Shown piece by piece: positions 8,328 to 13,714 of a stretch of DNA of 13,714 bases; positions within the stretch are counted from its first letter, which is position 1; the number at the start of each line of letters is the position of its first letter. Position numbers and translations under genes: made by a program. The DNA comes from a virus (lineage: Duplodnaviria > Heunggongvirae > Uroviricota > Caudoviricetes). Location of the stretch: IMG/VR virus record IMGVR_UViG_2693429599_000004; one strand, 5' to 3'. The notes beneath the pieces were generated by a model. It was given only the letters and a program-made list of their open reading frames with translations, was not told the origin of the DNA and made no database searches.

Positions 8328-8642
8328 ATGCATAACGATCAACATAATTATGATTTATGCCTGCAAGCCATAAATGAGCGGGTAAAATCAGAGTGCCTCT
8401 TACTCCTCCCACAAGAACACGATGCAGTAAAATCCATTCAGGCTGAGCCGTATGGACATCTCACACCTGTGACTCTCGGCATTATCGCCAGAGCATTAAC
8501 ACAGCCCATGCTTATGCGTATTAAGACCAATATAAATAACTGGTTGAATGAAGAATTAAGCTACCTTGATTGTGAGTGGGACAATCATTACGCAAAAACA
8601 CAAAAAGAACGCATCTTCAGTCGATTATCCAGCAACAGATAA
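8328..8642 (+). CDS. Hypothetical protein (104 aa), convergent partner inside the holin-endolysin insert
   Basis: ATG at 8328 with GAGG SD 7 nt upstream. Opposite strand to the late operon; stop lies 10 bp from the stop of the 268-aa gene. No motif recognised. Confidence 0.5.
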   Translation: MHNDQHNYDLCLQAINERVKSECLLLLPQEHDAVKSIQAEPYGHLTPVTLGIIARALTQPMLMRIKTNINNWLNEELSYLDCEWDNHYAKTQKERIFSRLSSNR

Positions 8643-8651
8643 CGAGCCACC

Positions 8652-9458
8652 TTATATACGCCCTTTCAGATAAGTCATCCCCGGCTGCATCCAGTCAACA
8701 GGTGCTTTCTTAAAGGGCGTATTATCAAAATCACGCAGAAGAGCCTCCAGCACAACTGCATCATTGTCAGCACCACTGGCCATCATTTCAATCTCAGCTG
8801 CTACCTGCAGATATCCCATGCAACGACCAATGCGCTTCATCAGCCCCTGCTTTTTATTGTTCTTCAGGTAATCAATGGCAAATTCAATGAGCGCCTCACT
8901 ATGCTGGTGCGATGGCGGTGTTAATTTCCCATTTTCTGAGATGGTTATTTTCCCGCCATCTCCGTATACAACAAAGGATGGCCGGTTACACTCCCATTCC
9001 TGATCTTTATCAGGTGCAGACGCAATAAAATAACGTTTATTTCCTTCCTCTCCGGCACTTTTAACCGTAATGGAGTACTCAGACTGCAGACAAGACGCCT
9101 CTTTTTCTGACCGCAGTGTTGACGGCGGCATCTTCAGAGAACCAGTAATTCTTCCCGGTAGCTTTCCTTTGTAGGTTATCAACACATCCTGCGCCTCTAA
9201 AATTATGGGGCGCTTTTCCGGCAACGGTTCGTTCCCTTCACATAACCCGGCAGCAACATCCATGAAAAACTGCTTCGCCTGCTTTTTCGCCTCAGCTTCG
9301 TAAAACTCCAGCGTGGCACCTTCAGTACGGTCAAGACTAATCGCCACATTTGGCAACAACAGTGACGGATACCCACCAATTTCCAGTACCACAGTAACAG
9401 TAATCTTATCCGGGTAATTATTTATCCCTTTAACAACCAGTTCGTATTTTTTCTTCAT
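8652..9458 (-). CDS. Hypothetical protein (268 aa) inserted between pinholin and endolysin
   Basis: ATG at 9458 lies 4 nt after the holin stop, with GGGGAGAG SD inside the holin 3' end. Long uninterrupted ORF. No catalytic motif, signal peptide or TM segment recognised by eye. Confidence 0.65.
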   Translation of the reverse strand: MKKKYELVVKGINNYPDKITVTVVLEIGGYPSLLLPNVAISLDRTEGATLEFYEAEAKKQAKQFFMDVAAGLCEGNEPLPEKRPIILEAQDVLITYKGKLPGRITGSLKMPPSTLRSEKEASCLQSEYSITVKSAGEEGNKRYFIASAPDKDQEWECNRPSFVVYGDGGKITISENGKLTPPSHQHSEALIEFAIDYLKNNKKQGLMKRIGRCMGYLQVAAEIEMMASGADNDAVVLEALLRDFDNTPFKKAPVDWMQPGMTYLKGRI

Positions 9459-9462
9459 CGCT

Positions 9463-9678
9463 TTACTCTCCCCGCGCCGCCTTACGCCGGTCCTCTCTGA
9501 TTTTGAAATACAGGTTAGTCAGATATGTCAGCAGCCCAAACAGCAGACTCCCCAGCACGCCTATTGCCGCCCACTGAGACGGGGAAACCCTGTCCAGCAA
9601 CTGCAGGAACCAGTAGCCCGTTCCCACCGCTGACGTGGTGTATGACACACCTGTTGTGATTTTTTCCATCTGGTACAT
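9463..9678 (-). CDS. S: Pinholin S (phage 21 S21-like class II holin) with dual-start motif
   Basis: [71 protein letters not shown] matches S21 from memory; two ATGs three codons apart; GGGAGA SD. Upstream part of the track ORF (to 9783) rejected. Confidence 0.9.
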
Positions 9679-9827
9679 ACCCCGTCTCCCGTTATCCGGA
9701 AGCTGACAACAATAAAAAAGCCACCAGTTAAGTACTGATGGCTCTGATAACTCATGCAGGCATCTCAGACGACCCACTGACACTACCGGTGAGTTTAACG
9801 ATACCTTCCATTTGACTGGCTCACTTT

Positions 9828-11696
9828 TTATGATGATGCTGGTGCATTTATCTCCAGCACCAGACTTTCTATCTCAACGCCATACGCTGCATTTTTGGTA
9901 ATATCCGTCAGCGTCAGCGCATTCAGCCCCAGTGTCAGACTGTCTTTTATGACCTGGAATGCCGGGCCAGCCACTCCATTCAGTTTCGGAGTAACCGTGG
10001 CACTGCCGGCGGTGAACACCAGCTCCAGCGTCTGCCAGTCGTTACTGTAATTCCCGAACTCGCCCAACTTTGTGTTTCCTGCTTTCCTGTGATGCATCAG
10101 ATTCAGTTTGCCGTCTGTGGTCTGGGTGAAGAACGACATCAGGAACGGGTTACCAGTCCCGGTCATCGCCACGACGTCAGGTAACGCTACATCGGTATAC
10201 AGATAAATTCCCAGACCGAACTGGTTGTTGGTCAGTGCGCCTGACAGTCGAAACTTACAGCTCAGTCTGCCACCCCGTGTCAGCAGGGAGACTGCGTCAT
10301 CCACCGGGCGCGTCAGGGACCAGGCTTTATTGCTCTGCTTGGCGATCTTAAATACACCACCCGACAACTGAATTCCGCCGTCCTTAATGGTCCAGCCCTG
10401 CGCAGCAGCCTCTCCGGCTGTCGGCAGCAGGGAGATTGTGCGAACGGACGTATCTGCAGACGGACCCGATGGCGTGTCGCCGCCGGGCGAGGGTTTGATT
10501 TCCGGTGCCTTACCACTGATGAAGGCTGAGGTGCGCCCGGCTACGTTCAGAATAGCAGTTGCCATACGATCGGGAATAATGCCACGACGCGCCCATGAGC
10601 TGAAATGCGTCGGGCGATTTGATGATACCCAGTTTTTGTTCGTTCGGGATGCCGAACCGTAATAACCAGACCCGGCAATATCAGGATCTTCTGACGGGTT
10701 GTTTGTCGGTGTATTAACTCCGCTACCATCGGTCATAAAGGGAACAAAATAAATCTGCTGGGATTCTTTACCTTTATATGCACCATATACCACTTCATAT
10801 TGCGTACCGTGTTCTTGTTTCCACGCGTATGTCGTGTCGCCACAAATCCAGGGGACTGATGCCGGACTTCCACCGTGACACTGCGCTGCCAGCCCGGCAA
10901 GGTCAGCACGGAACTGCTGTACCATTGCAAGAAATGCTGCTGGCTGCTGGGCGTAACTGGCATTCGTCATATCGAATTCCCCCTGCATCCAGCATATCGC
11001 CAGCAAAACGTTTTTCGGGTTTTTCTGCAATGCTGCCTTCGTGCGGAAAAGCAGATCCTGATATAACGGCTTACCCACTCCCCAGCGAGCCGAATCCTGA
11101 CTGGCCCCCGTGGACTCGCTGAATGTCCCCTCCGTGCCCTGGGTGAATGCCGAACCACCACGACAGCATGGTACCAGCAGGATCCCCGCATTATTAGGGA
11201 TATACGGAAGCAGTTTTTTGGCAATATGTAAGCCCTGGCCGACACAGCCGTACTGCCCTTTGCTCAGGTCAGCCCGGGGATGGTTAATCGTACTCATATC
11301 CTGAACATCATGCAGACAATGGTCAGCAGGAATGATGTCGTTAAATACGCATACTTCACCACCGGGAGTCACTGTGTTACGACGGGCCAGTTGCTTAATG
11401 CGCGGATGGGGCGCATCGTATGAATCCGGAAGCGGAAGCCCTTCACCGTAAGCCATGGCATTGGACTGCCCGGCCAGTACGATGACGTAGTACCACTCCG
11501 GCTCAGTTGCACCACTGACGACCACATCACCTTCTGCTGCAATCGCCTGCATCAGGGTATAAGGGGTTATGGCCACCGGACTACCAAACGGCTGCCAGCC
11601 CTCTTTCAGTTTATGTGTCAGCTTTTCCGCAAGATCTGACGGCGACGCCGCCCTGACAACATCATAGTGTTTAAATGCCATGGTTCTTTCCACCAT
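9828..11696 (-). CDS. nanS: Prophage-encoded sialate O-acetylesterase NanS-p-like (N-terminal DUF1737-like region plus SASA/SGNH esterase domain)
   Basis: 622 aa; GQSN esterase motif ([18 protein letters not shown]). Position between the tRNA/cargo block and the holin, as in Stx phages. Likely true start is the second ATG at 11681 ([16 protein letters not shown]). Confidence 0.85.
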
Positions 11697-11874
11697 CTGA
11701 AAAATGATTCTTTAAAATACCTGACATGTAATACAGAAAAAACACAAAACCATACCTTAATTAAAAACCTCATCATCAAGCAGATATGCATGGATAAACT
11801 ACAAGACGAGATATAAACCACCCTGCATTTAAATAAACAATAAACAACATCAGAAAAATAATTCTGCTCTATGG

Positions 11875-11901
11875 TTTACAATCAAAAATATCATTTATAC
11901 T
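11875..11901 (+). promoter_or_regulatory. Candidate sigma70 promoter for the divergent 111-aa gene
   Basis: TTTACA (11875-11880), 15-bp spacer, TATACT (11896-11901), about 40 nt upstream of the ATG in an AT-rich intergenic region. Spacer is short; pattern match only. Confidence 0.25.
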
Positions 11902-11941
11902 TTTCAGAACATCACCAGCAAGGCATAAACAAGGAAACTAA

Positions 11942-12277
11942 ATGAAGTGGATTGTGATTGATACAGTTATCCAGCCATCATGCGGAATATCTTTTTCAGT
12001 CATATGGAGTAAAATAAAATTAATAATCTGGTATCAATCGGATGCTTTCTTACCTCCTGAAAGTATATTTACACTGACTCACACAGGCATCATGCTCAAT
12101 AACAAAGTGCTGCCTGTAACCATTTACAACGTAGTACCATTCAATAAAACATTCTGGAATTTAATCAAAAACAGCCAGGAATGCCCTACAAATACAGATA
12201 ACGTATTGAATGAATGCTTTAATAACCGTTGCACTCTGCAAATATGTCCTTATGGGCTAAAACAACAAAGTCCATAA
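11942..12277 (+). CDS. Hypothetical AT-rich, Cys-containing protein (111 aa), divergent from the late operon
   Basis: ATG with AAGGAAA SD; low-GC coding sequence; Cys-rich C-terminal half ([25 protein letters not shown]). No homolog recognised. Confidence 0.45.
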
Positions 12278-12300
12278 GGAGTTTACTCACATCTGACAAA

Positions 12301-12333
12301 ATCAATATAAACAGCCCCTCCGGAGAGGGGCTG
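12301..12333 (-). terminator. Rho-independent terminator (minus strand) inside the cargo region
   Basis: Minus strand CAGCCCCTC-TCCG-GAGGGGCTG (9-bp perfect GC-rich stem, 4-nt loop) followed by TTTATATTGATTTTGT. Confidence 0.65.
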
Positions 12334-12724
12334 GAGAGTGGCGCTATGTGCCATTGCATGGTGCCGGGTGCCTCCCGGTGAATTCAGTACCAGCACCTGA
12401 ATCCGCGATTATCCCATATACCTACTCGCTGATTGCCCCTCCGCACAGGGGGATTCACCATGCCAGTTTCTTTTAACAAACTCCCCGCAAACCAGACAAC
12501 AGTCAACCGCCTGAATTGTGAAGTATTTAAAAATTTCTCCCGCTAACTGATACCCGGCTAACAGTCTGGCGTTTTCTTTTTCAGCAACGGGAAAGCAGCA
12601 ACCACCACACCCGCCACCAGCACACCGTCAGCCAGCACTGACATTATCCGGCTGCTGCAATGCCATTCACAAAAACAGTAAGCAATCACTTTTTACCGTA
12701 ACCGGTGATAATCCAGATATGTAT

Positions 12725-13081
12725 CTACCCCAGATGAGTAATCCGAAGTTCATCCATACCACAGGTCCTGGCTATTCTGTTGTACTCCTGAACAAGAGCA
12801 AATAATTCTGAATTAGCCACCATGAACTCATCGCAAACCCTCTGTATAGCATCACTATTCAGAATAATAACGTCTCTTCCCGAAAGACGATCAGGAGTAC
12901 AGAACAAAACTGTCAAACGGCTGAAGGCCTTTGCTCGTTCTGCATTGACTATATCAATACGCTGCCTAAGGATGAAACACCCCGACGCCTCATCAATATT
13001 CACTCTACCCACACCATATGAATGATAAATATTTAATGCTGAAAAAACCATTAGACCGTATAACAAACACTCAATCAACAC
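12725..13081 (-). CDS. Hypothetical protein (up to 118 aa) at the position stxA occupies in Stx phages
   Basis: Track ORF starts at GTG 13081; first ATG at 13051 gives 108 aa; weak SD. Co-directional with the tRNAs and late genes. No homolog recognised. Confidence 0.4.
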   Translation of the reverse strand: MLIECLLYGLMVFSALNIYHSYGVGRVNIDEASGCFILRQRIDIVNAERAKAFSRLTVLFCTPDRLSGRDVIILNSDAIQRVCDEFMVANSELFALVQEYNRIARTCGMDELRITHLG

Positions 13082-13188
13082 TTAACAGAACTTTTATTTT
13101 TGACAAACATATAATATTTTCAACAATATCCTGAGCCAGGTATATTTCAGTATAAGGCTCTGCCGAAAGGAATCTGGAAGAATGAATA

Positions 13189-13265
13189 TGGCGCGCTGTA
13201 CTGGATTCGAACCAGTGACCGATTGCTTAGAAGGCAATTGCTCTGTCCGGCTGAGCTAACAACGC
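13189..13265 (-). tRNA. argO: tRNA-Arg (anticodon UCU), phage argO/argU-like
   Basis: 77-nt cloverleaf read by hand: acceptor GCGTTGT/ACAGCGC, D-arm TAGCTCAGCCGGACAGAGC, anticodon loop CTTCTAA, T-arm GGTTCGAATCC, encoded CCA. Resembles E. coli argU. Confidence 0.9.
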
Positions 13266-13365
13266 TGAATACCGATAATGGACCGCCATCGGGGACCCGC
13301 CCCCGCACCAACAACCCTGTTATCGTGTCGTCTGCTCTTCCTGATAAGCTAATGGCGGTTTGTGA

Positions 13366-13441
13366 TGGTGGCCCTTGCTGGATTTGAACCAGCGACCTGG
13401 CGATTATGAGTCGCTCGCTCTCACCACTGAGCTAAAGGGCC
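13366..13441 (-). tRNA. ileZ: tRNA-Ile2 (anticodon CAU, lysidine type; ileX/ileZ-like), formally tRNA-Met by anticodon
   Basis: 76-nt cloverleaf: GGCCCTT acceptor, GCTCAGTGGTGAGAGC D-arm, anticodon CAT at 34-36, GGTTCAAATCC T-arm, encoded CCA. Near-identical to E. coli ileX from memory. Confidence 0.88.
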
Positions 13442-13450
13442 GGAAGCAGA

Positions 13451-13479
13451 ATAATAATGGTGCGTAATTAATTCTGCAA
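13451..13479 (-). promoter_or_regulatory. Candidate sigma70 promoter directly upstream of the tRNA pair
   Basis: Minus strand TTGCAG, 17-nt spacer, TATTAT; the -10 ends 9 nt before the tRNA-Ile2 5' end. Confidence 0.35.
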
Positions 13480-13490
13480 TCTCATCCGTT

Positions 13491-13714
13491 TCAAACGATT
13501 AAATCCTGAACTTCCCTGACTGTCTGCTCAAAACGTCCGGTCTCCAGTTCAACGCCAATCGCACGACGCCCGAGCGCCAGTGCAGCTTTTACCGTTGAAC
13601 CTGAGCCCATAAAAAAATCTGCAACCAGGTCATCATCTGCATAGTACGTCAGCGCCGGCCACTGGTTCAGGGCGTATGCGAACGCTTTCGCCAGTTCTGA
13701 GTGTCGCGACAGGG
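13491..13714 (-). CDS. DNA methyltransferase (N6-adenine/N4-cytosine, YhdJ/CcrM-like), C-terminal part; 5' end outside the window
   Basis: Open frame to the window edge ending ...DLVADFFMGSGSTVKAALALGRRAIGVELE...; the D-FxGSGST AdoMet-binding motif followed by an IGxE segment is typical of this methylase class. Confidence 0.6.
   Translation of the reverse strand, partial: LSRHSELAKAFAYALNQWPALTYYADDDLVADFFMGSGSTVKAALALGRRAIGVELETGRFEQTVREVQDLIV

Follow-up and report, generated by a model that had tools for sequence, protein, structure and literature searches.

A prophage-borne iraL gene, very probably encoding an RssB anti-adaptor, in the late region of a degraded lambdoid prophage

The open reading frame (ORF) at 11942–12277 of the window, by which we mean the whole 13,714-nucleotide stretch of viral DNA analyzed here, is almost certainly iraL, a prophage-borne moron for a small cytoplasmic anti-adaptor of RssB. 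Its translation is identical at 111 of 111 residues to CFT073 IraL (WP_000871291.1), whose gene (NC_004431.1 1343465–1343800) sits in a potB-adjacent prophage. IraL, whose gene was formerly called ycgW and lies on the potB island, was characterized by Hryckowian et al. (2014, mBio; PMC4045071); the gene, product, promoter, and function of iraL were thus already described in 2014 and are not new. A first-pass annotation, made from the letters of the DNA without database searches, had not recognized the family and proposed homology and structure searches. We ran both, and they gave the IraL identity and a PmrD-like barrel that matches IraM in the Protein Data Bank (PDB) entry 8TWD. The features of the gene and its surroundings are as follows.

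11697–11941 (no strand): AT-rich spacer of 245 bp, 29% GC, from the esterase start codon to iraL
11875–11901 (+): probable σ70 promoter; positions relative to the mapped start, hexamers assigned here by eye
11909–11941 (+): iraL 5′ untranslated region (UTR), 33 nt; start A11909 deduced from identity to the CFT073 RACE end
11931–11936 (+): Shine–Dalgarno sequence AAGGAA, with 6 nt from GGA to ATG, by direct reading of the sequence
11942–12277 (+): iraL coding sequence, 111 amino acids plus stop, ATG start; very probable RssB anti-adaptor of the IraM/IraL family
12312–12333 (no strand): GC-rich hairpin of 9 bp, 35 nt past the iraL stop, from a terminator scan and folds of both strands

ORF 11942–12277 is the sole plus-strand gene amid the minus-strand genes of the late region. 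Its opposite orientation to the flanking phage genes had been pointed out in the first-pass annotation, and we found all other credible features nearby on the minus strand. The GC fraction is 0.351 in the ORF and 0.294 in the spacer at 11697–11941; the whole window has 0.494, and the esterase gene at 9828–11696 has 0.539. The low GC content, the good Shine–Dalgarno sequence, and the clustering of cysteines in the C-terminal half, all claimed earlier, agree with our readings; four of the five cysteines (positions 14, 81, 92, 97, and 102) lie within the last 31 residues. The intergenic region is AT-rich, as had been stated, but it is 245 bp long and not 240 bp.

The window and CFT073 are 99% identical over 644 nt of DNA, and the coding DNA differs at two of 336 positions, both silent. 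In genomes with 100% DNA identity to the window locus, the RefSeq protein is again WP_000871291.1. By the published definition of IraL, namely, at least 95% identity to CFT073 iraL across the whole coding region (PMC4045071), the window gene is iraL, its protein being 100% identical; by that of K-12-type IraM, which takes at least 95% identity together with the iraM upstream region, it is not iraM. Window IraL and K-12 IraM share 62% amino acid identity and about 71% nucleotide identity, and the published amino acid identity of IraL and IraM is 58.9% (PMC4045071). The protein matched the NCBIfam model NF007393 (“anti-adapter protein IraM”) with 162 bits (cut-off 121, E = 4.7e-48, residues 1–110) which, together with the CFT073 identity and the 8TWD match, places it in the known IraM/IraL/RssC family. 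The RefSeq product name “IraM” for the window protein is a family-level label, applied because the protein shares with IraM its family and fold, 62% identity, contacts to the N-terminal domain (NTD) of RssB, and a four-cysteine motif. No Pfam family was assigned to the window ORF by hmmscan with E values allowed up to 1, so the classification is based on NCBIfam, the PDB, and the fold. PF11183 (PmrD) is precomputed for homologues, yet the Pfam hmmscan gives nothing for the window protein itself. Searching 1.84 billion representative proteins with a profile brought up 93 relatives at E ≤ 1e-3, about 50 of them full length; those with a named source belong to Salmonella, Citrobacter, Enterobacter, and Cronobacter.

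A 604-nt iraL locus was present in 1446 of 5426 complete Escherichia coli genomes and was always annotated there as “anti-adapter protein IraM.” Identity over this locus, which takes in the promoter, was at least 95% in 1419 genomes and at least 99% in 796; the window iraL allele is the common one. These counts bear on whether the ORF might be a chance reading frame in AT-rich DNA or a relic that is silent in its host, a reading that would suit both the degraded state of the prophage and an AT-rich region typical of H-NS targets. Reading frames of 111 codons or more, however, turned up in just six of 2000 mononucleotide shuffles of 11697–12300, the family is conserved across Enterobacteriaceae, the locus and its promoter are at least 95% identical in those 1419 genomes, and in CFT073 and S. 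sonnei the gene has been shown to be expressed and functional (PMC4045071). We consider either origin extremely unlikely.

A phmmer search of the PDB gave a single significant match, IraM in the IraM–RssB complex (8TWD, 8twd_A; E = 9e-32, residues 1–78). An earlier AlphaFold2 model built with 16 close homologues had a pLDDT of 54.8, and a model built with 42 diverse homologues was used instead; in this model, residues 1–80 have pLDDT values of about 80 to 96, with seven strands across residues 2–66 and a helix at 69–77. Foldseek superimposed the N-terminal domain of the model on 8twd_A with a TM score of 0.90 and an rmsd of 1.3 Å, and PmrD was next best (2jso, 4hn7, and 2rqx; E = 6e-4 to 3e-3, TM about 0.7, identity 14–21%). 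These models suggest that residues 1–78 of IraL form a PmrD-like β-barrel plus a helix, and the PmrD likeness of IraM was reported in the IraM structure paper (PMC10844676). Zinc proteins of the Kti11/Dph3 type also appeared in the PDB search (E = 0.26–0.9); their matches lie in the N-terminal barrel and not in the cysteine tail, and we took them as chance.

The PmrD fold and the precomputed PF11183 label on homologues would also be expected of a PmrD-type connector that protects another response regulator, such as phospho-PmrA, with RssB not its main target. The identity to PmrD is merely 14–21%, however, whereas the protein is 62% identical to IraM and lies above the cut-off of the IraM NCBIfam model, and the identical protein was published as binding RssB and stabilizing σS (PMC4045071). 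A PmrD-type connector is thus very unlikely, and we return to the RssB anti-adaptor.

Deletion of iraL lowered log-phase σS in CFT073 and S. sonnei and halved the half-life of σS from about 5 to about 2.5 min, and in a two-hybrid assay, IraL bound the NTD of RssB, the only domain for which binding was reported (PMC4045071). As published for the identical protein, the window IraL would bind the response-regulator-like adaptor RssB, this binding would block delivery of σS (RpoS) to ClpXP, and σS would thereby be stabilized even in unstressed exponential growth. By analogy with IraM, IraL may block the σS-binding face of the RssB receiver domain, with inhibition occurring through occlusion of its α4-β5-α5 face. 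We compared the two proteins at the 14 IraM residues that touch RssB, as listed in PMC10844676, using an IraL–IraM alignment, and 10 of the 14 were identical. All five residues of cluster I, which meets the NTD face of RssB (I4, I6, W22, K26, and I42), are identical in IraL, whereas four of the nine in clusters II and III, which meet the C-terminal domain or linker of RssB, differ (T13S, L75I, H63N, and I64V). These changed contacts may explain the reported NTD-only binding of IraL. The IraM-like geometry suggested here for IraL is an extrapolation; the paralogue that it comes from has 62% identity and reportedly binds RssB in another way.

[quoted passage not shown] Window positions 11909–11940 agree with this end at 31 of 32 bases, the exception being a C to T change at 11939. 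According to the same paper, iraL has its own σ70 promoter with σ70-like −10 and −35 elements (PMC4045071). The window carries TATACT (11896–11901) 7 nt ahead of the start and a −35-like TTTACA (11875–11880), separated by a short spacer of 15 nt. A generic σ70 scan with a rule of 16 to 18 nt for the spacer did not call the TATACT/TTTACA site; its plus-strand hits at 11834–11862 and 11993–12020 misfit the mapped start, were fewer than in shuffled sequences, and were discarded. The iraL regulatory region from −100 to +1 corresponds to 11809–11908, and a fragment beginning at −100 and including the iraL coding region was sufficient to raise log-phase σS in K-12 (PMC4045071).

The 245 nt upstream of the gene are 96.7% identical to CFT073, and the spacer is 96.7 to 100% identical across CFT073, FORC_069, FDAARGOS_1259, and E. 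albertii; no similarity of the window spacer to the K-12 iraM upstream region was found. The promoter and UTR of the window and CFT073 differ at 11881 (A and T, respectively), 11908 (A and G; position −1), and 11939 (T and C), and for the window allele we therefore infer the level of expression. With an opposite orientation in the late region, a GC fraction of 0.35 compared with 0.54 in its neighbor, and a start of its own mapped in CFT073, the gene has the features of a moron. The earlier suggestion of independent expression was thus borne out by the identical CFT073 gene, which has a RACE-mapped start and a σ70-type promoter in a region 96.7 to 99% identical to that of the window. A promoter pair firing in both directions from the spacer, as had also been suggested, was not recovered: a consensus scan found no minus-strand promoter-like site in 11600–12600, and the esterase gene lies within the phage late operon. 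In a lysogen, iraL would be transcribed from its own promoter, starting at about 11909 and running counter to the phage late operon, and, because this promoter opposes the late operon, it would be independent of Q antitermination. H-NS could silence the very AT-rich iraL region in some hosts; a 2012 paper by Battesti is said to deal with H-NS control of iraM. At the other end of the gene, the hairpin at 12312–12333 is followed by a U-rich run on the minus strand and by no U-tract on the plus strand. It is the terminator of a convergent minus-strand small RNA (sRNA) and, for iraL, at best a weak terminator or 3′ stabilizer; a dedicated plus-strand terminator for iraL was not evident from the terminator scan and folds.

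The surrounding prophage contains the following features.

92–685: fragment of an SseK/NleB-family type III effector, 197 amino acids of a 317-position profile
9828–11696 (−): esterase of nanS-p type (SASA/DUF1737/DUF6645), 622 amino acids
beyond the esterase (−): P21-type holin, DUF1327 protein, lysozyme, and Rz
12303–12492 (−): prophage sRNA of the STnc100/PasD family (Rfam RF02076, 132.4 bits, gathering score 47)
12558–12689 (−): ORF of 43 amino acids; related genomes annotate its counterpart as a DUF3927 protein
12725–13081 (−): ORF of 118 amino acids matching phrog_2873 (E = 1.7e-70), which has no assigned function
13366–13441 (−): tRNA-Met (CAT), one of two minus-strand tRNAs, called by ARAGORN

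Positions 92–5480 hold the effector fragment, a tail fibre gene, lom, and the C-terminal 166 amino acids of J, whose end abuts a 5′-truncated large terminase gene (3831–5480), and head and tail genes have therefore been deleted. As a whole, the window represents a lambdoid prophage in a degraded state, with iraL in its late region. Over positions 8625–13632 it has 98.7% identity to the prophage of FORC_069, and FORC_069, FDAARGOS_1259, and CFT073 have the order Q, then tRNAs, DUF3927, STnc100, iraL on the opposite strand, esterase, holin, and lysozyme. The slot taken by iraL is that of stx in Stx phages. Q-dependent late transcription would run antisense through iraL, so that interference upon induction is plausible; we offer this as a proposal.

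Several neighbors of iraL deserve comment in their own right. The STnc100 sRNA converges on iraL, leaving 25 nt between it and the iraL stop. Such a convergent pairing of an iraL-family gene with STnc100 occurs in CFT073, in an O157 Stx2c prophage, and in two copies in E. albertii, and was absent at K-12 iraM and in Citrobacter. In related genomes, RefSeq lays a pseudo “hypothetical protein” over the sRNA, and in the RefSeq genomes inspected, no gene is annotated where the phrog_2873 ORF would be. Related prophages annotate the tRNA at the 13366–13441 position as tRNA-Ile, and it is probably a lysidine-modified tRNA of ileX type; lambdoid and Stx phages usually carry a tRNA of this type downstream of Q. 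Between holin and lysozyme, the DUF1327 (YdfR-family) ORF at 8652–9458 (−) encodes 268 amino acids with the domain in residues 1–100 only, its relatives have about 115 amino acids (345–351 nt), and identity to related prophages drops in 8652–9458; this ORF may be a fusion or carry an insertion.

The C-terminal tail of IraL contains four cysteines whose codons span 12182–12247 of the window (residues 81–102), with a C-x10-C-x4-C-x4-C spacing and no classic CxxC knuckle. We examined their conservation in an alignment of 56 enterobacterial homologues with a median identity of 32% to IraL. Cysteine was kept at C81 in 53 of the 56, at C92 in 48, at C97 in 50, and at C102 in 47, and these columns, together with the flanking CP and CPYG, were among the best conserved of the whole protein. 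Most of the 10 sequences lacking one tail cysteine have frameshift-like tails. Among the 16 close homologues, C81, C92, C97, and C102 are invariant, as are P82, I101, P103, and G105, and C14 is often replaced by serine. The tail had pLDDT values below 50 in the AlphaFold2 models built with both 16 and 42 homologues. In IraM, residues 79–107 were removed from the crystal construct as proteolytically unstable, and the tail was termed less conserved and flexible, with no mention of cysteine or zinc (PMC10844676). Searching the literature for IraM together with zinc and cysteine gave nothing relevant, and two anti-adaptor papers are likewise silent on zinc and on the cysteines of IraM. From sequence conservation, we tentatively suggest that the IraL/IraM tail, rather than being a flexible end that the protein could do without, is a conserved four-cysteine module (CP-x9-10-C-x4-5-C-x4-CPYG) that might bind zinc or sense redox, a proposal that we regard as possible but doubtful. 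If it is true, the module could tune the stability or activity of the anti-adaptor and provide a metal or oxidant input to σS proteolysis.

Four cysteines inside 22 residues of the tail would also suit a secreted or periplasmic disulfide-rich protein, as the first-pass annotation had suggested along with a signal-peptide prediction. Kyte–Doolittle hydropathy, used here for that prediction, showed no h-region; the highest 15-residue mean was 1.42, and D7 breaks the hydrophobic run of an N-terminus that is not signal-like. Residues 2–11 form a strand of the barrel instead, and the corresponding region of the homologue IraM touches RssB in the complex through Ile4 and Ile6 (PMC10844676). Both the partner RssB and ClpXP are cytoplasmic, and the chance that the protein is secreted appears negligible; the cytoplasmic RssB anti-adaptor is the reading that we retain.

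The importance of this finding is modest: a degraded lambdoid prophage that carries an effector also bears iraL, which would raise RpoS in growing cells. A statistical association of the gene with uropathogenic, prostatitis, and Shigella isolates has been reported (PMC4045071). At least three distinct paralogues borne by prophages, whose promoters are unrelated, share the RefSeq label “IraM,” and one lies beside stx2c. That paralogue, the conserved four-cysteine tail, and the convergent iraL–STnc100 pair are minor leads, and iraL may interact with the sRNA and with the antisense late transcription.

Among known systems, CFT073 IraL has the identical protein and 99% identical locus DNA, including the mapped start, and it occupies the same slot on the opposite strand, with the tRNA/DUF3927/STnc100 block on one side and a nanS-p-type esterase and holin on the other. 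Three base changes in the promoter and 5′ UTR, together with two silent ones in the coding sequence, separate the two loci; in CFT073, the esterase gene is truncated, with an IS200 upstream, whereas in the window, the esterase is intact and the head and tail genes are lost. K-12 IraM (b1160, beside the cryptic prophage e14; 8TWD) shares family, fold, RssB-NTD contacts, and the C-terminal four-cysteine motif with the window protein, but its upstream DNA is unrelated, and it lies at another locus without STnc100 beside it. IraM acts under Mg2+ starvation and IraL in unstressed log phase (PMC10844676). Both domains of RssB are contacted by IraM, but reportedly only the NTD by IraL.

A third IraM-family paralogue, WP_001303568.1, is found in E. 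coli O157:H7 SS52 (NZ_CP010304.1 2656716–2657039), where its gene lies between stx2cB/STnc100 and the esterase in the Stx2c prophage; our literature search found no functional study of this protein. It has 75% amino acid identity to the window protein and the same slot, immediately upstream of a nanS-p-type esterase, on the opposite strand and converging on STnc100. It differs in lying directly downstream of stx2cB, and upstream of it, similarity to the window is limited to 40 nt. An iraL upstream region that is unlike that of K-12 iraM and shares 40 nt with the Stx2c variant is in keeping with the distinct regulation reported in published work. Salmonella RssC and the enterobacterial “IraM” homologues have a similar length (about 107–125 amino acids), the same domain plan, and the four-cysteine tail, but their identity is 20 to 55%, and they are mostly chromosomal (Salmonella, Citrobacter, Enterobacter, and Cronobacter); the published identity of rssC and iraL is 49% (PMC4045071). 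PmrD (4HN7, 2JSO, and 2RQX) resembles IraL in its barrel-plus-helix fold and in being a small protein that binds the receiver domain of a response regulator. By contrast, its identity is 14 to 21%, it is without the cysteine-rich tail, and its target is PmrA rather than RssB.
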